A stretch of 64,000 nucleotides of DNA, taken from contig JAUFOQ010000003.1 in NCBI GenBank assembly GCA_040285855.1, positions 930,001 through 994,000 on the forward strand. Reading direction: 5' to 3'. The translations under genes were made by a program, and so were the position numbers. How positions within the stretch are numbered: position 1 is the first letter of the stretch; every line of letters begins with the position of its first letter. Origin of the DNA: Eukaryota sp. GEM-RC1. Lineage: Eukaryota. Under the pieces are notes generated by a model. The model saw only the letters and a list, made by a program, of their open reading frames with translations, was not told where the DNA came from and did not search any database. Below are positions 35,281-48,360 of this stretch, piece after piece.

Positions 35281-36256
35281 ATGAATCCATCTAAGCCCAA
35301 ACCCCCAAGGCTACCATCTTTATCCATCAAAAGGATCCCAATACCACACTTGGTGGAGCTACTAAAAAACTTTTGTTCCTTGTGCACCTCCTAGACCTCG
35401 ACCTCCAGAGCAAAAAACTGTGTCTGCTGCTCTTCCTGGACTTCTTAAGTCTATTGAACGTAAAATACAACCAAGAAAGCCCCAATCCCAAAAACGTCCT
35501 CTAAAGCCTAAGAAAATGATTGAAATGGGCGAAACCTTCTTCTCTGCTTCAAAATCATCAGATTCTGTTCCGATATCATTTGCTCCTATAGATGAACTTA
35601 AACCTGAATTTTTATTTGAAAACGCTAAACCAAGACAATTAGTTTTTGAGGAACGTTACCAACCTGCTGAACTTCCTTTTGTTCCAACAGCAGACCCTCT
35701 CCCTCAAGATCCTCAAGATAAGCCTGTATATCATAAGACTCCTGAAGCAGGGGTGACTTTCTCCAGAGCTGCATCAGAGTTTCTAGAAAATGGTAAAGTT
35801 CCTAATGATTTGTTTCTTCTACAACTTCCTGTTTCATTACCGTGTGAATCATCGAGATCAATTCCAGTCAGGAAAGCTCCACCCACAACTCCAATCCAAG
35901 CTAAAAGGAAACAGCAAGCTTCAGAGAAGGAAGTAAATGAAGCGAGAAAGAATGGTGCTAAGAAAATACCGAAACAGTTCGAACCTTTCCCAACAAACCA
36001 TGGTGATTCATATCCTTCTCATTTATCTTCAGCACCTTCAGGAAGACTTGGTAAGCTTGTTATACATAGGAGTGGGAAAATGAGATTAGTGTTTGAAGGG
36101 GGAATTAGCTTTAATCTTTCACAAGGGATACCAGTATCTTTTGATGAGAGAGTTGTGTCTATTTCAGCCAAACAACGGGAAGACGTCCTTGAAAGTTCGA
36201 CCATGGTTGAGTTGGGCAAAGTAGGATGTAGAATGGTTGGTGTTATTGATGTTTAA
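35281..36256 (+). CDS. POLR3D: RNA polymerase III subunit RPC4/C53
   Basis: C-terminal LFLLQLP..GRLGKLVIHRSGKMRL; frameshifted N-terminus RLPSL..TLGGATKKTFVP from ATG 35281. Confidence 0.85.
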
Positions 36257-36441
36257 GGTCTTGTTAATAGTCCGATTGGATTTCTGGTGTAGAGTCTACA
36301 CTGTAGACTGATTTGTAGTATTTTTTAATATTTATTGACATTGTCTATTGATTACTCAAAGGAATGTTGTTGCACATGGAGCGTACTATCACAGCAACTA
36401 AGTATGAGATTAAAAAAGTGGTTATAAATAGACTATAATGC

Positions 36442-36759
36442 TTAGCATTCCATTGGTGTAGATTCTAGTGCTTGAGAAAAGCGGTCCAGTACAACTGTCG
36501 TCATGTCTTTCAAAGTGGAAAGACCTCCTTGCATAACTTCTAGCGGAGGAACATTGTTTCGAGTTTGAATACGGAAGTTTAAGACAGGTTCAATAGGATG
36601 TGGTATACTGTAAGCGCAAAAGTCAACATCAGGACGCCGTGAGACGACATTTCGAAGAGCGTTTCCTATTGTGTGACTTTCGTCAGTGATTTTGAATGTA
36701 GCACATGAATGGTCTTCAGCATCATAAACAACACGGATTTTATCTAATGGAGACTCCAT
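36442..36759 (-). CDS. POLR1D: RNA polymerase I/III subunit RPAC2/AC19
   Basis: ATFKITDESHTIGNALR..VDFCAYSIPHP..NFRIQT. Confidence 0.9.
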   Translation of the reverse strand: MESPLDKIRVVYDAEDHSCATFKITDESHTIGNALRNVVSRRPDVDFCAYSIPHPIEPVLNFRIQTRNNVPPLEVMQGGLSTLKDMTTVVLDRFSQALESTPMEC

Positions 36760-36813
36760 TTTAGTGATAGTAAGGGAAAAGAAAACAGTTTCAATTTCTG
36801 TCTTAATCCCAAG

Positions 36814-37665
36814 TAGGATTGTAATTTTGAGTCAAGCTGACTCACTGAGCTTTGAGTCAGTCAGCTCGAGGCAGGCTCATTTGACTCATGAGTCGAGTCA
36901 AGCCTGTATCTTTGTCCGTGAGTCAGCTCGAGTCAGGCTCATTTGACTCATGAGTCGAGTCAAGCCTATATCTTTGTCCGTGAGTCAGCTCGAATCAGGC
37001 TCATTTGACTCATGAGTCGAGTCAAGCCTATGTTTCTGTCTGTGAGTCAGCTCTACTCAAGTTTACTCTAATGAATGTAATTTAGTACAATTTAAACGTA
37101 TTCTAGTACAATCACCTGTACATGGAATTAGTAGCAGTTCTCTGTATAAATTCATTGCATGTTGATGTGTGGGATGAGCTGACAGCTTACTTATCAACAG
37201 GCATAGTCGATGCTGCGGTGGATCCACTAGATTGGTGGAAACGCTACCAATCAGATTATACTAGCTCAGCTTGCTCAGCTCGCGACTACTTAAGCATTCG
37301 GCCAAGTTCAGCAGCAATTGAACGTTTGTTCTCTGCTGCAAACCAAATTGTAACAAAGGAAAGGGCTAGACTATCTGCAATACTGCAAGGTGTTTATTGT
37401 GTTTACACTCGTGGTACGGAATAGGTGTATTAAATTCAGATCAGTAGAAAACAGTAGAGATTTGTGTTATGTTATAAAGTACAATAGAAAAGAGCATTCA
37501 AAATGAGTCAGCTCGAGTCAAGCTCGGTTGACTCATGAGTCAAAGTCAAGTCAAAGGTAATCAAAATGAGTCAGCTCGAGTCAAGCTCGGTTGACTCATG
37601 AGTCAAAGTCAAGCTTCAAATTGTAGGCTTGACTCGACTTGACTCGGCTCATTTTAACAACCCTA
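36814..37665 (+). mobile_element. Internally deleted hAT element
   Basis: TIR TAGG(A/G)TTGT; 8-bp TSD ATCCCAAG (36806-36813, 37666-37673); ~62-bp subterminal repeats rich in GAGTC/GACTC; hAT dimerisation remnant DPLDWWK..ARDYLSIRPSSAAIERLFS (37122-37424). Confidence 0.95.
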
Positions 37666-37673
37666 ATCCCAAG

Positions 37674-37800
37674 ACCACCGGATCTTCAACCTGTGAATTT
37701 CTCTTAAGATGAATTCCCCATAACGAATTATGGACATTCATCTACACTCACAGTGCACATGGGCTGTGGCGGTTCTATCCCTTGCGGGTCCGCCACTGTT
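37674..37800 (-). ncRNA. Candidate Fanzor omegaRNA scaffold overlapping the ORF 3' end
   Basis: Minus strand: GUGGCGG-A-CCC-GCAA-GGG-AUAGAA-CCGCCAC, then nested stems CUGUGAGU/AUUCACAG, AGAUGAAU/AUUCAUCU and CCAUAA-UUCG-UUAUGG. Position matches known TnpB/Fanzor omegaRNAs. Confidence 0.7.
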
Positions 37801-40153
37801 TCTGTTATTGAATCTTCATTGTTGTTTGTACTCTTTGCTGCTCTCTTCCGTCTTTCTTCAGCTAACTTGTCAGAGAAACACATTGGTCGATCCTCACCAG
37901 CGAGAGTACACTCAACAATCTTTAGAATATTCAAACAGCTATTGAAGTCTCGATTCCAGAGTTTATGACATTTTTTACAACGCACTAAACCCCAACACTT
38001 GAGTTCATCGGGCTCTTCCTGCCACAACAGCTTATCATCTTCGTCCTTCCAACTAGACCAATTCCTCAGCGCTGATAGACGATTTGCCTTCTTGTCAACT
38101 CTTCGCTTCTTCTTCCGGAAGTTTGGATCCTTGACTTTAAGGAAGGTTTCCGTTTCCCCTTCGTCATCGTTGTTCTCAGAACATTCATGGCACTGAAGAG
38201 ATGTCCTGAATTCGTTAACCAGAAGAACCTGATAGCCAGCTTTTTTGAACAACTTTCTCGATCCTTTCCCCATGGATGGAGGCTTGTATTTCCTATGCCT
38301 TGACTGACTCCAATCACCTATGGCCAACCACGTGTTGGTTGGATCTCCGTAAACTTGACGGAATCGATGGAGCATTTTACGTTCACTTTTTTCCTTGTAT
38401 ACTGATTTCCAATAGCTCCATTTGCGCCATTTAGATTGATGGTACAGAGACTCCATTCTATTTGCATACTTGTAGAATTGTTGGACGTACGCTTTGAATT
38501 TTGAAAAATTTGTTGTTTTGGAAGTAAATTCTGAAAATTCTGTCTGAATCTGTTCAGCTGTCAGTTGTCTTCCCGAAATTTCGTTAAAAGAATAGTTTTT
38601 GAAGGCTTGGTTCTGAAATACATTGTATTTTTTTTGTTTTCCTTCGTGCCTTCGAGTTCCTTGAGTATATCTCATTTTTTGAATTGATTTTTCTTTTGAA
38701 ATGGTCTCTTTTTACTTGATTTTTTGACCTCATTATTCTCTTTTTGGAACTGGGCTTTATGCCTTTTAATTTCTTTCAATCTCTTCTTTTCATATGTTTT
38801 TGAGATTTTTGGGTCAAGTGGGGAGCACAATGCCCAGGATTATCAATTTCTTCCTGGGTTTTTCTTCCAACCAAGTACAGAATATCCCATTGGTTAGGGT
38901 CCCCCACCACGACTTTTTTTATTTTTTAAATCCTCTAATTTTTCAGGATGTAAATCTTCCACATACTCCTCTTTTTCCTCCGGAGACTTGGCAGAGTATG
39001 GTTTGAACAGTAGATCATTTCTGGTCATCATGAGACTGATGGATTCACCATTGGTGGTTATCTGGTGACCAAATGAATACATCTTTTGAAGGTGTTCAAG
39101 TATTTGTGATCAAGATTCAAATACTGGCTCCAAATTTGATTTTTAAATAAATTAATGTTTTCGCTCAGATGTGTTAGATTATAACCTTGAACTTGAGGTT
39201 TAAATAATTTAATCATAGCCATCGTATCCAATCGAAGGTGATCAGGGATTAGGCTGGTGGATTGTGGAAACATACGGTACATCTTTGGTGGAATCTCATT
39301 ACAGGAAGGGTTATTCTCAATCAATTTGTTGAGAACGAAGGCCTCTGGTAAGAGCTCCAAAGGCTTTACCTTTAATTGGTATTTGAGTCCTTTAGAGTCT
39401 GGCTTAAAGCTTTTGACAAATGTAATGAAATTTTGATGTTCATCTGATGGATTTGCCAGATCTCGGTAAAATCAATATTGGATCCTCTGCCTTCTAAAAT
39501 TTCTTTAAGGATATTATTGTACAACTTTTGCAACTGGTCTTTTTCGACTTTTTTAAGTGCATTGTTTTTAATAATTTTTAGTTGTCCATTTAAATTAAAG
39601 AAGAGTTCCCATGTTTTTCCAAATATTCAATAAAATGGGATGAAATATTATTTTGATACATTGTAACAATCTCAGTAGCTGTGTAACTTAATGTACGAGA
39701 CATATCAGAGTACATGACATTGGGAATTTCCATATTCATGGGGAGAAGATGTTGGATATAGAAGCATCCCAATTGAATTTTCAAAGCATTGTGCTTTTTG
39801 CCTGGAGTACTTTGAACAATCTCAGTTACCCATTTAAGTATTTCACTTCCATCAATATTTTCCTCATTTTTAAATCTTTGATGAGCTAATGGAGACAAGT
39901 ATCCAATAGTCCAGAGCAATTGGTGGACACTTTCTTTGGTCCATTCTACCGGATTCAATTCCTGGTTATCAAAAGAGTTCATGCAAAAGCCTTGAAGTAG
40001 CAGCAATGCACGTTGTTTAATTCGGTGATGATTTATAGAAATTTCATTAACCAATAAGTTATTATCACTCCAAACAGATTTTAGGGTTACTTTAACCGTT
40101 TTTTCACCCGGGCATTTCAGCAATTCTTGTGTTTCGACTTGAAGGAAATACAC
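37728..40153 (-). CDS. Fanzor1 (TnpB-family RNA-guided endonuclease), frameshift-split
   Basis: KTVKVTLKSV; IVTMYQNNISSHF; YQLKVKPLELLP; FPQSTSLIPDHLRLDT; YSFGHQITTNGESISL; RuvC-I VVVGDPN (D at 38899-38901); IGDWS..MGKGSRKLFKKAGY; RuvC-II VNEFRTS; zinc finger CHEC..CKKC; RuvC-III WNRDFNSCLNI. Confidence 0.93.
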
Positions 40154-41648
40154 AAAAGGCTTTGTAATTCAACAATATCGTTAAAATGTTCACGTAAACA
40201 TTTCAAGTTTTGTTCAGATGTGAAATCTGTAGAAACTGGTGTGGGAACTGAATAACTTTCATTTTTTAAAATGTTCTTTACAACAGTAACCCAATTCAAA
40301 GATTTTCCAGTTCTAGGTCTGTAATAATTTCTAATAACACGACCCAAATCTATTAGCTGAATTTTTGAGTTTTTGAATTGTTTTAAAAAATATTTGTAAA
40401 AGAGAGGACACTGAATATTTGAACAATTCTCTGATTTTAAATTAAATTCATCCAACGTAGAACTTGCATCATAACCAATTATCAGACCACAGTCAGTTAA
40501 ATCTAAATAATCATTAAACGCACTAATCATAGATTCCTCTTGATTAAACGCTTGAACATTCACTCTAGCATGCTCAGAATTAGGTGACAGAACTGAATCG
40601 CAACTTTGTTGTGTAGTGAATATAATTGATTCTACAATTGAAATTACTTGGTCCTGTACCTGAACTGTTTGAGTGATAATTGATGTGATTATTTTTTTCT
40701 CTTTTTCCTTTTCAGTTTCTTTAGTAGCTGCTGAAGCTTCAATCATTTTTACAAAAATGCACTTAATCGAGTGTTTGTGATCTAACATTAAGGTTACGTT
40801 TTCGAAAGGATCTTTTCTTTTTTTAGACTTAACTGGTGATTCTTTTTCGTTTGTTTTTTCATTTGTTTTTACTGCCAATGGGCATTTTCTTATATCATGA
40901 CCAGTGTTTCTACACTTTGAACATTTACGCCCAATTTGTTTTTTCACCAGTTGGGGTTCGTTTTCATTATTATTGTTTGATCGTTTTTGTTTTCTTGGAG
41001 GCATATTGCTGACAGTGGCAAGCCTTTTTCCTGGATTAACGTGGCTGTCCAGTTTTAAGTTCAATCTGATACGAAATTGAGAGGGATCAAATTGATGATG
41101 CATAATTTCATTTTGAAAATCTGTCATCATTATACAGTGATCAATGTGACCAATTGTTTCAACGTTAAATGTCTTGAATAAAACTTCAATAAAATACAGA
41201 ACAAATATGCCACAATCATAACCATTGTCCTGTTTCACAGAATTAATGTGACAATGGTAAAAGTTGTTTGGGCAAAACGATTGTATAAAATCAATTTTTG
41301 AGGACAACAAATTACTATTAGAGATAGAATCCATGAAGTATAACGTTTCAGTCATGAAATCCATAACACATAGTCCCCAGTGAGTTCCAGCAAATCCGTC
41401 AATAATACCATTGTTCATGAGAATAAGAACAAGCCGACAATCTGCATTTTTTTCTCTTATATCATGATAAATAACGTCTTTCTCTAACGTTAGAAAGTTA
41501 AATAAATGATAAAATCCAATAGCTTGATTGGCGAGTGGGTAATCCAAACTGATATTATTTATGGAAAAAGAAGATGGAATAGCTCTAACCATTCACATTC
41601 AGACAACAATGTTATGTCTTCAAATTCATGTGAGTTAAATGATACCGG
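40117..41648 (-). CDS. Ulp1/SENP-family (C48) cysteine protease domain, CCHC zinc knuckle and linker; probably N-terminal part of the Fanzor polyprotein
   Basis: DITLL..EWL, GTHWGLCVMD, YFMDS, KQDNGYDCGIFVL (H-D-Q-C residues); CSKCRNTGHDIRKC at 40882-40923. Confidence 0.85.
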
Positions 41649-41710
41649 TCCGGGATTCGACTCGATATCACCATCTTTGGTTAAATCTTTAACAAACAAA
41701 TCAATCAAAC
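41646..41710 (-). other. 2A-like ribosomal skipping (StopGo) sequence
   Basis: LIDLFVKDLTKDGDIESNPGP is an exact match to D(V/I)ExNPG|P; core at 41646-41669. Confidence 0.85.
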
Positions 41711-41894
41711 AAAGTTTGAAATTGTGTTTATTCTCCAAATCAAAAGTGAATTGCTTTTGTCGAGTTTTACAACAAGACACGGACCACTGCGGTATTAACT
41801 CATCAGGAGTTGCAGATATCAAGCTATAAGCCTCTTCTCTGCAACTGCCCTGAGTTGTTAATCCTGGGTTAGGGCCGTAGTCCCCACCCAAATT

Positions 41895-42082
41895 CATAAC
41901 TGAAAAGACGGAACTTTCAGTCTCAACTGGATACAAAACATCCAGCCGAGGAGGATTGGAACCTCTTATTGTGTGAGGAGGGTCGGAACCTCCTGAACAC
42001 ATAACTGAAAGGACGGAACTTTCAGTCTCAACTGGATACAAAACATCCAGCCGAGGAGAATTGGAACCTCTTATTGTGTGAG
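41895..42082 (-). repeat. Two 83-bp direct repeats (105-bp period) built of hairpins
   Basis: 41895-41977 and 42000-42082 differ at two positions; stems CUCGGCUGGAUG/UAUCCAGUUGAG, CUGAAAG/YUUUCAG and GAGG/YCUC. Confidence 0.9.
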
Positions 42083-42231
42083 ACATCAACAAACCTGATG
42101 GAGTCATGAGACGGAAATAAGTCACTGTCGACATTGTTATTGATTGTTCATCACTTTCCTCTCAGCAGGATTCCGTTCATAAGGGATTTTGATTTTGCCA
42201 ACAGTTTTCTTTTCACTTTTTTCTGCTACTG

Positions 42232-42660
42232 ATGCAGCTTTCTCAGGTATCAGCGTCTTGCTAGTCCTAACACGCTTTGATTGACTTACTTTCTTTCTTG
42301 AAGGTGTTCGCTATATCTGCACTGACTGGTGCTACAAGTCTTATTGCTGTCTTCTATGCTGCTGTTAGATTTAAGGAATACGAGCTTCTTCTCATTCTGG
42401 CTTTTGGAATTCTTTCCCCATTTGCTGAACTTGTCTGCAAGGACGACAATAGCTTCGACTCTTCTTCAGGTCTAGAAATCATGGGTAAGTTCCTTACTGC
42501 TGCGTTGTGTAGAAGTGGTTTATGTCTTCCTATAATGCTATTCCACAGTGACATAATAGCCACCATCCCTTTAACTATTGCTTTAAGCGGCGCTATGCTT
42601 TTCTACTCCTCGGTATTCATTTTTGTTGAGAAAGTTGCTCCTGACAACGACTCCTTTTAG
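42232..42660 (+). CDS. Vps55/LEPROT-family small membrane protein
   Basis: ATG 42232; intron 42247-42303 (GTATCA..CTAAC..AAG); four TMs; GKFLTAALCRSGLCLPIMLFHSDII. Confidence 0.78.
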
Positions 42661-43137
42661 TTCCTGTTTTGTTCATTGTAGATAAACTCAATCAAACAGT
42701 ATCCCTTTTATCTTCATATCCGTCTCTTCCTTATAGTGTCTCTGTAATAGTGTGATTCCTTTGAGTGTGGGTATACACTTTTGACATGATCAATGCTAAA
42801 TATCACATGTCAGTCTTGTTACTTGTACTTGTTCTCTTCTTAAATCAAGATGCTCTTTCATACCCTAGATAAACAAAATGATAGCTATGGATTGTACAGA
42901 GTTTATTGATTCTATACATCTAGATAATGCACACAAAACTTAAACGCTAACATGGAAGGATAATGGCCTGTATAAAAGGACACAACAGACCAAAAAAAGA
43001 CGATATGGGGGGAATTGTTGGGGAGATGAGACTGCTGAGTGGATGGAAGGGGAATTAAATTCAAACAACTAGAAGATAAACCTCACAGACGGATCTGATC
43101 TTACCAAACTACTTAACATCTCTCTCTATATCCTCTT

Positions 43138-44524
43138 ATGCTACACCATTACGAAGTTCTTGGTGTAATCGGTGAAGGTACGCTTACGTTTCCTTTTGAT
43201 CAGTCCTTTTCACTGGTCCTCTTTTTCTCGAACATAGACTCATTGCAGGGGCCTATGGTGTTGTTCTCAGATGTAGAAACAAAGAAACAAATCAGACTGT
43301 AGCCATTAAGAAATTCAAAAACACTGATGACGATGAAGCTACCAGAAAGACAACTATTCGTGAAATACGAATGCTCCGTCTTCTTAAACACCACAACATT
43401 GTCACTCTTATTGAAGCCTTCCGCCGCAAAGGTCGTCTTTATCTTGTTTTCAACTACGCTGAACGTAATATGCTCGAAGTTCTCGAAGCCCAGAAAGGTG
43501 GTCTCCCACTCAATAGAGTTCGATGGTTCATCTTCCAACTTCTCCAGGCTCTTTCATTTACACATCACCACGGAATTCTTCACCGTGATATCAAACTTGA
43601 GGTAATGCCCATATTATTTAGTTTCTAATAGTAGAATCTTTTAGTTACCAATGACGACACATTAATGCTCTGTGATTTTGGCTTTGCCAGAACTTACAAC
43701 CATAGAGATAGTCAGCTTACAGAATACGTGGCTACCCGATGGTATCGTTCACCATCACTTCTTTTGGGGTTACCGTATACTTCATCTGTTGATATTTGGG
43801 CTACTGGTTGTGTTTTGAGTGAATTGGCAACTGGTGAGCCCTTATTCGCAGGTGATTGTGATGTAGATCAATTAAATTTGATTCTATCATCAGTTGGACC
43901 TCTTCCTGCTTACCTCAGGGATTCATATGTACGCCAGCCTAGATTTCGTCGACAAGAGGACAACAGGAGGCGGAGACATGCATCGAAGAACGACTTTTTC
44001 AAGAGGCTGATTCCATATCTCTCTCCTGCTGGGGTAGATCTACTACAACGAATGATTGAGCTTGATGAGAGAAAGACAATTACAGCTGAAGAAGCGCTGA
44101 AGCATCCTTTTTTGATGGTCTTCATGAACAGTTTAATAAAATAGTAGCAACAAGTAGGGGAGAAGAGTCATTGACGAGTAGAGAATGTCACTCGCGACGG
44201 AAAACCAATGATTTGCGATTAAAGACACCGTTTAATGGTCTTGAAATGACTGAAAGCTCGCCCAATGTACTCAATGGATTAGGTCAGCGATCAATGTCTG
44301 GTCCAAAGCTCACATTGCCGGCAGTTGGTCACGATCTCTCACTTAATAGTACACAGGGTAAGCGTTTTCAGTCACAGTTCAAGCCTGCTTCAAAGAATCC
44401 ACTACCACAACCGAACTTTAACATGGATCTTCCGCTGAGCAACTTGTTTGGTCGAACAACACCGATACCTCAGATTAGTCAACACTCGAATATTTCAAGG
44501 CCTTTGCACATGACTTATTTATAG
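43138..44524 (+). CDS. CDKL-family (CDKL5-like) Ser/Thr kinase
   Basis: Splicing introns 43178-43248 and 43602-43634 restores GEGAYG, VAIKKFK, EAFRRKGRLYLVF, HRDIKLENLL, DFG and TEYVATRWYR; probable frameshift in the T run at ~44110. Confidence 0.9.
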
Positions 44525-45307: not shown

Positions 45308-47795
45308 ATGGACCAATCAAGTATTGCTCACTTCCTCTATGAGCTGCGAGTTTGTAACATCATGACGCTCTCTCTTACTTCAGAATCCTCCAGTCCCTCT
45401 TTCTCAAACCCCAGACCAGCGTAAGCCCAGTGACGATCTGAACAAACTGGTTCAAATCCTTGAAACAACAACAGGACAACAGTTAGGCCCATCGGAGAAC
45501 TTTCTATTCCTTACCGTCAACCAGAGTACTATCACTTCTACATGTAATCACATTGGTATGTCATTTTTCGATCTTCATCTCACACTAGTACTGAACATTG
45601 GTTTCAACGATGAAGTTGCCCAAAAGCTGGCCCTCGTTACTGATCCTCTATATGTCTACCAATGTTACTGTCTCTTCATTGAGACTTATTCCTTCGTAGT
45701 ATTCGGAGTTTCTCCTCAGGACTTGTCCGATGTTGCTGAAGAAATTGGACTTGCTGGATCAGAAAAGTTGGACGTAACAAAATTGAAAATGTTAATCAAT
45801 GGCTATCAAAACCTCCTCCAATTCTTGAACCATGTCATTCCTCAAGATCCTAGAGAACAACTATCACTCTATGTACAGAAAGTCTCTGAAAAGCTTCCAA
45901 CTGACCCCATTCAATTGAAAGTTCAATGTCTTCTCATCAATGATATCCACCAACGAGCTCTCACGATTGAGCCTTCCACTAAATCCTTTGTTACTTGTGA
46001 ACATGGGTTTGACCAAAATGATGCTCTCGTTCAATCAATTCATGGTACTACTTCTGATGGTCAGAAACTAGATAGAATCACCAAAGATTTAAATGCAAAG
46101 GCTGAATCTAGTGAAGATGTTGTATTGTTTCTTAATGCTGATGCAATAGAATATCGTTCTTCGCCTTTTGCTCAGTTCAAGAAGACGTTTAAGGGTAAAC
46201 GAGATACTGGTATAGCTGCTGCTGCCACGTGCCTTATTCTGGTTATCTTGGGTGTACTGCTATTCCTACTCTTACGTTCATCCACTTCAAAGACTTTCCT
46301 TGTGTTTGGAACAGTCACTGGTGATTCAGTTGCTCTTCCAGGTGTTCTTGTCTCTGGTGATGGTTTAGATGACGTATACACTACTGAGGATGGCTTTTTT
46401 AGACTTCAGCCACTTGCCAATGGTGACTACGAATTATCCTTCGAACTCGTAGGTTATGTTCTTAAGTCAGTCAGTGTTACAGTGTCTGACAATGATAAGA
46501 CTGTTGATGTTTCTCTTTCCTTACATACCTTTGTTGTATCTGGAACAATCACTAGTGATTCCGTTGAACTTGCTGACGTTCTTGTCTCTGGTGATGGTTT
46601 TGATGACGTCTACTCTAATGCTGAAGGCTACTTTGAGCTTGAGCCACTTATTAATGGAATTTATGAACTCACTTTCGAACTTGCGGGCTACGACTCAAAG
46701 TCTGTCAATGTTACAGTGTCTGGCAGTGACGAGTCGATTGATGTTTCTCTTGATCTGCCTTCACTTCAACTTTATATATACGACGATCTCACTTCTGAAC
46801 CAATTCCCAATCCTAGTGTTAAGCTCAATCAAGATTTGATTGTTGATGGAGATGAGGACGGTTACGTCATCATTGCTGATTTAATTCCTGGTGATTATGA
46901 GCTCATTTTGATGCATTCTGATTATTATAATCGAACTCTTCATGTAGAAGTACAATTTTCCAAGATTCAATCTTTGTCATTGACTCGTCATGGATTTACT
47001 ATTGTTGGTGCCACTATTACCGCTTATGATGCTTCTGTAGGTATATCAGTATCTATTCCGGCATATGTCAATGGAGTTGAGATTACTGGAATTGGACCTT
47101 ATGCTTTCGCTTTTAAGAACTTAATTGCTGTTTCTTTTGCAGACAATATTTATTCTATCGGAATGTTTGCTTTTGCAGGCAACAACATTGACAGTCTTCA
47201 TTTTGGAAATGGATTAACAATCATTGGTCAAGATGCTTTCTCTACTAACTATGAACTAACAACAGTGGTTTTTGGTAATTCTCTCACTACTATTGGTTCT
47301 AATGCATTTACTTACACTTCTATCTCATCCATTGTCATACCAGACAGTGTCACGACCATCCATTTTACTGCTTTTTATTACAGTAACCTATCTTCTGTGA
47401 TTCTATCTGAGTCTCTTACTGAAATTAGTAAGGGGGTGTTTATAGGTAACGAATTAACAAGTATCACCATACCATCTTCAGTTACCAAAATAGGTGATTC
47501 AGCATTTCAAAATAATAAGTTGTCGTCAGTTGAATTTGGAAATTCTGTACAATTGATTGATGTTCAAGCTTTTTATCACAACTTGTTAGAGTCGCTGAAG
47601 TTTCCGGACAGCTTGGAACGAATTAATTCGGAGGCTTTTGCAAATAATCCACTGTTATCTGTTGAGATTGGTGATGACGTGACATCACTGGATGATTCAG
47701 CTATACCAGGAAATTTTAAATCTGAATATATTCAGACAGGGGCTGGCGTTTACTCTAGATCAAGTACCTCAGACGACTTTGCTTTTGAGGATTGA
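45308..47795 (+). CDS. PPDK-like/TM/repeat/LRR family, copy 3 (2+1 repeats, longer LRR)
   Basis: ATG 45308; introns 45350-45383 and 45556-45588; same domain order as copies 1 and 2. Confidence 0.82.
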
Positions 47796-47884
47796 TGTTT
47801 CTTTTCCCGTTCAGTATACATAATTCTTGTTTTCTTACTGAAGATTCAACCCTTTCCTCACTGGTTATTAGAATTTACATTCTA

Positions 47885-48360
47885 TTTCATCCGTTGTCAT
47901 TCCAAATGATGTGACCTCTATTGGTTCAAGAGCTTTCAGAAACAATGGATTGACATCAGTCATTCTGTCTGAATCTCTTGTTGACATTGAGAATTACCTG
48001 TTTCATGGGAATTTGTTGACTAGCATTGTCATTCCATCATCTGTTACTATGATAGGAGAAGATGCGTTTCGGTGGAGTTATTTGACTTCTATTGAATTTG
48101 GTAATTCTGTGCAATCCATACACACACGTGCATTTTATCAGAATGTCAATTTAGAATCGGTCAAGTTTACAGACAGCCTACAACACCTCTTTGATGAAGT
48201 CTTCACCTTGTGTCCCCTGTTAACAGTTGAGATTTCTGATGATGTTACAGTTGAACCAACTTCCATTGCAGGTCTATTCAAGCATGTATATGATGCAAAC
48301 CAAGGTGGGATTTACACTAGAGCAAGTACTTCTAACAACTTTGTGATTCAACAGGACTAG
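47885..48360 (+). pseudogene. Orphan BspA-type LRR C-terminal cassette
   Basis: Paralogous to the last ~155 aa of copy 3 (SVILSESL..IPSSVTMIGEDAF..GGIYTRASTS); no ATG, TM or stalk. Confidence 0.7.

Follow-up and report, generated by a model that had tools for sequence, protein, structure and literature searches.

A predicted viral-type StopGo/2A sequence in the 5' frame of a Ulp1-CCHC-Fanzor1 element of Eukaryota sp. GEM-RC1

In a 64,000-nucleotide stretch of DNA from Eukaryota sp. GEM-RC1 (assembly GCA_040285855.1, contig JAUFOQ010000003.1, positions 930,001 to 994,000; the window, in whose coordinates all positions are given), a mobile element with a Ulp1/C48 protease, a CCHC zinc knuckle and a Fanzor1-type nuclease lies on the minus strand from ~42.2 to 37.7 kb, between Vps55 (42271-42660, plus) and an Rpb11-type gene (36442-36831, minus). 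In the 5' frame of this element, the minus strand encodes FVKDLTKDGDIESNPGP at 41696-41646, which by translation is the 17-residue peptide FVKDLTKDG-DIESNPGP. Judged by its residues, this is a genuine viral-type (DLTxDG-class) StopGo/2A sequence in a new context, at the head of a Fanzor gene that belongs to the DNA element of a deep-branching protist, with skipping activity predicted. With slightly better than even confidence, the 2A of this multicopy Ulp1-CCHC-Fanzor1 element would release a leader peptide at Gly|Pro and continue translation from Pro. The organism (taxid 3038955, an unclassified eukaryote) is taken to be Skoliomonas sp. GEMRC, a free-living anaerobic metamonad. The Skoliomonas sp. 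GEMRC genome is 33.5 Mb in 21 contigs, with 36.9% G+C and 48% repeats, and was assembled from Nanopore R9.4 reads with Illumina correction and polishing (PMC11316075).

The 2A signal and its viral class

The core octapeptide of StopGo/2A peptides, D(V/I)ExNPG|P, is present as DIESNPGP at 41669-41646, with the predicted skip site between 41649 and 41648 (Gly 41651-41649, Pro 41648-41646). The back-translated D(V/I)ExNPGP pattern has one match in the window and a match in 0/100 dinucleotide shuffles. The bare NPGP pattern also has one match in the window, yet at least one match occurs in 20/100 shuffles, so NPGP alone is weak evidence. From the six-frame residue frequencies of the window, the expected number of D[VI]ExNPGP occurrences is 3.4e-5 in a window and 0.018 in a 33.5-Mb genome, and that of the longer form DLTx[DE]GD[VI]ExNPGP is 7.7e-9 in a genome. 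A chance origin of the motif is excluded.

The residues upstream of the octapeptide place the peptide in a described viral class. In a 2026 study in PNAS, ~1,900 representative viral StopGo sequences were sorted by the six residues preceding the octapeptide; motifs 1 and 4 have WV(R/K)DLTx[acidic]G in common, motif 4 ('DLTxDG') has G at p11 paired with p12=D and p15=S, and one peptide with motif 4 reached almost 100% activity in reticulocyte lysate (PMC12846837). The DLTKDG hexapeptide occurs 60 times in that viral dataset. The window peptide agrees with motif 4 at V, K, D, L, T, K, D and G, at p12=D and at p15=S, and deviates only in having F for W. In class B of another classification, a class considered similar to motifs 1 and 4 in the PNAS study (PMC12846837), W or F at the first position can each give activity (PMC12338488). 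The first-pass annotation of this DNA had proposed a viral-type StopGo peptide from the D(V/I)ExNPGP core, and that proposal is strengthened, since the nine upstream residues also fit a published viral class that was active in vitro.

Outside the window, DLTKDGDIESNPGP is present in NCBI record KU529284, and a scan with the pattern DLTxDGDIE[S/T]NPGP found three metagenome loci and six IMG/VR loci. In 9/9 of these the motif lies within a long open reading frame (ORF; 113-2547 residues open, on contigs of 1.3-9.5 kb) and has R or K directly before DLT. Pfam searches on five of the nine gave picornavirus capsid and RNA helicase domains in two, a double-stranded RNA-binding motif in one, and no match in two. 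Earlier work on 2A also lists peptides of the DLTxDG form for two iflaviruses of insects.

Copies of the element

Other copies were compared through annotated proteins, which are gene models on a repeat-masked Nanopore assembly. The leader is common to ten annotated proteins, and seven of these, on five contigs, reach the 2A site: P0011 (the window's own), P0002, P0003, P0007, P0008, P0009 and P0010. DGDIESNPGP, whose conservation among element copies had been put forward as a check on the motif, is kept in 7/7. Variation nearby consists of K/N at the free x position and, in P0010, a change of K to V at the R/K position, so that the eight core positions and eight of the nine named upstream positions are intact in 6/7 copies, P0010 being the exception. 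Of the other three leader proteins, P0005 shifts frame ~20 codons upstream of the 2A site, while P0004 and P0006 have the same leader core followed by a different protein, with no 2A in either. The agreement of the seven copies indicates that the motif belongs to the family and is not proof of selection. No further copies of the element were found within the 64-kb window.

The leader

The 2A lies 155 codons into the open frame from the first ATG, which has A at -3, and ~20 residues beyond the end of a leader core that is shared between two kinds of protein (Table 1). The leader-2A ORF is also annotated in six other copies; the 105-nucleotide unit of the leader is present two or three times among the copies, always with the frame kept. 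The 401-nucleotide leader (41740-42140, minus) has a fold of -142.1 kcal/mol, compared with -105.4 +/- 4.8 kcal/mol in shuffles (z -7.59). The placement of the 2A between a structured leader and the protein domains of the element, as first annotated, is borne out by the element map.

The leader core is invariant between the Fanzor-type proteins and the polymerase-B-type proteins P0004 and P0006. P0004 has a DNA-polymerase-B exonuclease domain (PF03104, E 1.5e-5), and a PDB sequence search with this protein gave no match. The hairpins are invariant between the two gene families in places where the flanking protein sequence has drifted to 50-64% identity, and the leader core looks like a portable 5' module of two different mobile gene families. 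The leader protein belongs to no Pfam family, its predicted structure is poor (predicted local distance difference test score 0.35), and a search of the ESM Atlas gave no usable relatives. A tRNA-like T-arm and a hammerhead or hepatitis delta virus-like ribozyme were suspected in the leader; a tRNA scan of 36000-43500 found no tRNA, and Rfam at E<=1 on the same interval gave three sub-threshold matches only, with support for neither a T-arm nor a ribozyme and nothing relevant to a guide (omega) RNA.

A retroelement or RNA-virus origin for the whole 5' half, also suggested in the first-pass annotation, finds no such backing. In Pfam searches on eight ORF pieces of the element, Peptidase_C48 and Cas12f1-like_TNB alone passed the cut-offs, with no reverse transcriptase, endonuclease, transposase or RNA-virus family, and the reverse transcriptase and APE endonuclease that follow the 2A in non-long-terminal-repeat (non-LTR) retrotransposons are absent downstream of this one. 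The leader core, moreover, is common to DNA-polymerase-B-type proteins that have no 2A. Going by these comparisons, the virus-like part is the 17-residue signal alone, and its source may be either acquisition from a picorna-like virus or convergence under the constraints of the ribosomal exit tunnel.

The frame relation between the 2A and the protease

After the 2A Pro there are 28 sense codons (VSFNS...HLLFP) and then TAA. The protease is in the -1 frame relative to the 2A, with its own ATG, and the two frames overlap by 34 nucleotides (41592-41559). The 2A had been annotated as in frame immediately before the Ulp1 domain, and this part of the earlier reading does not hold: Pfam, PDB matches and an alignment with 30 small stand-alone C48 proteases all put C48 in the -1 frame, the first conserved C48 strand, FSINNISL, begins at 41568, and VSFNSHEFEDITLL, which had been taken as the start of the Ulp1 domain, is linker or tail outside the recognised domain. 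The 2A is out of frame with the protease in 7/7 annotated copies, and in none of them does its frame stay open for more than 30 codons past the skip site. The stop is the same TAA (after LLFP) in 6/7, and in 1/7 the frame ends in LLFHK. Between the 2A Pro and the protease ATG (41590-41632, minus) there are two very short ORFs, MNLKT and a single M, each followed by a stop and read in other frames, and that ATG sits in a tandem TGAATG-TGAATG.

How the frames are related can be explained in four ways. A continuous ORF that lacks one base in this sequence is rated somewhat short of an even prospect; two real, separate ORFs are on the unlikely side; and bridging by a 41-nucleotide intron or by a -1 frameshift is a slim prospect in either case.

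For a one-base shortfall, the candidate site is a T5 run, the sole homopolymer in the 34-nucleotide overlap, where one extra T would give the reading ...ELFHLLF-SINNISLDYP.... The first five frame changes along the window copy are all in the same direction, and three of them are single-base shortfalls in T/A runs relative to P0001 and P0013, as judged from the proteins. The frame breaks of the window copy resemble either decay or homopolymer errors left unpolished in the repeats of a Nanopore assembly, a kind of assembly in which A/T runs within repeats are typically called too short. Further apparent single-base shortfalls in T/A runs occur between 39100 and 38600, and frame breaks are concentrated at 38590-38980, a lysine-rich stretch with many A runs.

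The candidate intron would join the frames as ...SECEC-LDYP.... Its donor, GTTAGA, is weak, with T at +3, unlike the two host donors GTAATG and GTACGC. The first of these belongs to a 33-nucleotide host intron (43602-43634, GTAATG...TAATAGTAG) in a CDK-like kinase gene, where the exons join exactly at positions 127/128 of the Pkinase profile; a second intron of the kinase gene, of ~70 nucleotides, lies near 43180-43250. Two other splicing solutions around 41600-41520 were rejected by eye: with donor GTGAAT and the same acceptor the 2A frame is kept and runs into a stop, and with that donor and a later acceptor the conserved LANQ motif is lost. For the -1 slip, Phe-tRNA would re-pair on U-UUU, and there is no canonical heptamer.

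Proposed mechanism and its rivals

If the 2A is active, the following course is proposed. The leader sequence would be fixed by a role at the level of nucleic acid, as the hairpins and the shared module suggest, and for that reason translation would have to start within it. Ribosomes would start at an AUG inside the leader, the nascent leader peptide would be freed at Gly|Pro, and the 2A would thereby let the element discard a peptide forced upon it. Translation from Pro would run into the tail and then past the frame join into the Ulp1-CCHC-Fanzor protein, the frame break 29 codons after the 2A being either a base missing from the T run, through assembly error or an inherited mutation, or bridged by the 41-nucleotide intron or a -1 slip. 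A broader reading is put forward tentatively, at appreciably less than even confidence: a DNA element may have reached the strategy of L1Tc independently, with a portable folded leader, acting as nucleic acid, swapped among the otherwise unrelated Skoliomonas Fanzor and polymerase-B families and translated through, and with the Fanzor family having gained a picorna-like motif-4 StopGo that sheds the leader peptide and frees Ulp1-Fanzor.

Several observations weigh against release by the 2A. In 7/7 annotated copies the 2A frame ends 29-30 codons past the skip site, and no annotated protein of 351-2000 residues joins the leader with the protease; a protein word search with the leader ORF among proteins of that size had no match. 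The protease ATG follows a stop directly, where small stand-alone C48 proteases begin, and this position fits a separate ORF. At the shortfalls near 40155, 39615 and 39460, the wrong copies number 1/3, 2/4 and 1/3, compared with 7/7 at the T5 run, which makes random assembly error implausible there. A homopolymer census, compatible with either T5 or T6 at this site, also speaks against a continuous ORF, in that 17 A/T runs of at least six remain in the element and wholesale compression of long runs is not indicated. A shortfall inherited from a founder copy would explain the 7/7, and the spread of the element may not depend on an intact ORF, because no transposase family was found in it. The W of the viral motif is replaced by F, and, with an identity of 88-95% between the seven copies and the window's ORF, the conservation of the motif says little on selection.

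No relatives outside this genome were found in the searches made. The protein word search with the protease ORF matched only another copy, P0001; a HMMER scan of this ORF against 1.84 billion representatives gave 47 weak matches, none with NPGP (0/47), of which the best (E 1.1e-15, in 12 stretches) is probably low complexity and the others have E of at least 1.1e-7; tblastn found no related loci in metagenome and viral contigs; phage records gave no match; and the residues flanking the 2A (25 before, 28 after) had no relatives outside this genome in protein searches. Among the matches listed in a literature search, no title or abstract mentions use of a 2A peptide in Giardia.

The strongest rival, though itself rather unlikely, takes the assembled frames at face value: the leader-2A frame would be an upstream ORF overlapping the Ulp1-Fanzor ORF by 34 nucleotides, and the nuclease would start at ATG 41592. 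The 2A would then act as a translational brake or attenuator, or would aid restart at the nearby ATG after 41559, and would not set the N-terminus of the protease. The common end of the 2A frame, the ATG as first codon after the stop in the protease frame and the lack of an annotated fusion all suit this layout, as does the N-terminus MVRAIPSS-FSINNISL, which aligns with the natural N-termini of the 30 small C48 proteases. Many eukaryotic 2A-like peptides, moreover, lower protein abundance and do not give separate products (PMC13405545). However, an upstream ORF of 180 codons that contains several AUGs would be a strong barrier to ribosomes scanning towards ATG 41592, and it would be unusual for translation of such a long ORF to be followed by restart 31 nucleotides upstream of a stop. 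The break also matches the direction and homopolymer setting of the one-base shortfalls in the same copy, and the natural 2As documented in the parts of PMC3708506 and PMC12338488 drawn on here all lie within a continuous ORF with a functional protein downstream.

Less probable still, and well on the improbable side, is an inactive relic, in which a 2A stretch, acquired in a single event from an RNA virus or some other element, persists because the copies are young, the leader being untranslated or the peptide failing to skip on host ribosomes. The near identity of the copies, which leaves selection indiscernible, is compatible with this, as is the fragmentation of all annotated copies into short gene models; the change of W to F affects a position needed by class B peptides, though F can keep activity (PMC12338488). 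Against it stand the intact core and upstream positions in 6/7 copies, with variation mainly at the free x, and a frame that is open for 155 codons from an ATG with A at -3 and stays open through changes in the number of 35-codon repeats. The motif is also placed precisely where the shared leader gives way to the domains specific to the element, an arrangement known from L1Tc and other retrotransposons (PMC3708506). Chance or contamination by a laboratory vector has negligible probability, since only the brevity of the classical octapeptide speaks for it and both the 7.7e-9 occurrences per genome expected for the 14-residue form and the seven genomic copies on five contigs speak against it. 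The window peptide is not known as one of the four laboratory 2A peptides. Release of the leader peptide at Gly|Pro is preferred to these alternatives.

The element downstream of the 2A and its surroundings

Downstream of the 2A, the protease has the His-Asp-Cys triad and the oxyanion Gln of Peptidase C48 in the order of the family (His71 at 41382-41380, Asp88 at 41331-41329, Cys127 at 41214-41212). In the alignment with the 30 small C48 proteases, H71, W72, D88, S89 and Q121 are invariant and C127 is nearly so, and the protease looks intact. The CCHC knuckle that follows is of retroviral type, and a basic stretch also lies between the protease and the Fanzor part. The Fanzor1 part has a RuvC-like nuclease with a zinc-ribbon insertion, including NEFRTS (38216-38199), NRDFNS (37955-37938) and two CxxC pairs, and its PDB matches are the solved Fanzor1 structures of SpuFz1 (8gkh, E 1.3e-11) and PpFz1 (9cf0, E 5.5e-11).

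Table 1. Features of the element and of the junction between its frames, in window coordinates
Feature	Position	Strand	Basis or remarks
Leader-2A open frame	41562..42134	-	First in-frame ATG 42134 (second 42107) to last sense codon; stop TAA 41561-41559
Two tandem 105-nucleotide (35-codon) units, three hairpins each	41865..42074	-	Repeat family D3, 85% identity
Conserved leader core (LGGDYGPNPGL...TRQKQ), long hairpin	41751..41891	-	Fold and alignment of Fanzor-type with polymerase-B-type proteins
17-residue StopGo/2A signal (skipping predicted)	41646..41696	-	Pattern match, expected counts, motif class from PMC12846837
28-codon tail and TAA stop	41559..41645	-	Same end in 6/7 copies
T5 run (coding strand) in 34-nucleotide overlap	41565..41569	-	Inferred: one T more or a -1 slip would join the frames
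Candidate 41-nucleotide GT..AG intron	41549..41589	-	Inferred
Protease ORF: Ulp1/C48, linker, N-terminal part of Fanzor	40117..41592	-	ATG 41592-41590 directly after stop
Ulp1/C48 protease	~41568-41100	-	Pfam PF02902 E 2.7e-8; PDB matches yeast Ulp1 1euv, SENP8
CCHC zinc knuckle CSKCRNTGHDIRKC between protease and Fanzor part	40882..40923	-	Pattern C..C....H....C
Middle of Fanzor protein, three frames	39061..40168	-	Broken near 40155, 39615 and 39460, at each of which it is one base short of two other copies
Fanzor1 C-terminal RuvC and zinc-ribbon (TNB)	37731..38711	-	PF07282 (Cas12f1-like_TNB) E 1.2e-7

Directly 3' of the Fanzor ORF is a hAT transposon remnant (36821-37645), with a hAT dimerisation domain on the plus strand (37107-37424; PF05699, E 1.6e-12) and, on its flanks, inverted sets of 62-nucleotide tandem repeats rich in GAGTCA. 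The remnant may belong to the Fanzor element or may have inserted separately. Elsewhere in the window, an 809-residue BspA-type open frame (45366-47795, plus) has two carboxypeptidase-regulatory-like domains and leucine-rich repeats (PF13306, E 1.3e-45), and a second BspA-like ORF lies at 47872-48360.

Significance

If the tentative reading of an independently reached L1Tc strategy is true, DNA transposons, genes of RNA-guided nucleases and Metamonada would each gain their first natural 2A. If the 2A is active, ribosome skipping would be a general tool by which mobile elements uncouple a forced leader from an enzyme, and a short peptide signal would either have crossed between RNA viruses and the DNA elements of cells or have arisen twice; the element would also supply a natural module for expressing a eukaryotic RNA-guided nuclease. 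It offers a test of StopGo on metamonad ribosomes, of which the literature search found no report.

Comparison with known systems

Outside RNA viruses, natural 2A peptides are known mainly from non-LTR retrotransposons and a few cellular gene families (PMC3708506, PMC12338488). Predicted 2A peptides are described across eukaryotic supergroups, with the Excavata cases almost all from Trypanosoma and Perkinsela, and a DNA-transposon context for a 2A does not appear in the parts of that account drawn on here, though its supplementary tables might list this protein (PMC12338488). Among the matches listed in the literature search, no natural 2A in a DNA transposon was found, the natural-element cases being retrotransposons, and for Skoliomonas and transposons only the genome paper (PMC11316075) was found.

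The closest likeness of the peptide itself is to the viral DLTxDG class, that is, motif 4 of PMC12846837, near class B of PMC12338488 and carried in picorna-like polyproteins, which has the same DIESNPGP core and the same V-(R/K)-D-L-T-x-D-G. The window 14-mer is identical to the KU529284 peptide in 14/14 residues and to the iflavirus-like loci L001 and L007-L009 in 13/14. Unlike the viral class, the window peptide has F for the conserved W, lies in protist nuclear DNA within a DNA mobile element and not in an RNA virus polyprotein, and has just 28 further in-frame codons as assembled.

In position, the closest likeness is to L1Tc/ingi and other APE-type non-LTR elements, where the natural 2A is in the N-terminal region, after a leader and ahead of the enzymatic domains, with the same idea of freeing the enzyme (Odon 2013, PMC3708506). 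In contrast to these, the window element has no reverse transcriptase or APE endonuclease by Pfam, and has a C48 protease and Fanzor1 downstream. The upstream motif class of the L1Tc/ingi 2A also differs from that of the window. The C-terminal RuvC and zinc-ribbon resemble those of the Fanzor1 proteins SpuFz1 and PpFz1, but in the window a leader with a 2A, a C48 protease and a CCHC knuckle come before Fanzor in the same reading direction; titles and the starts of abstracts in the Fanzor literature, among the matches listed, mention no C48 protease, CCHC knuckle or natural 2A. Ulp1/C48 proteases are carried by plant MULE and CACTA DNA transposons. The window element is like these in joining C48 to a mobile-element protein, and unlike them in that the partner is a Fanzor nuclease and not a transposase, with a 2A upstream.

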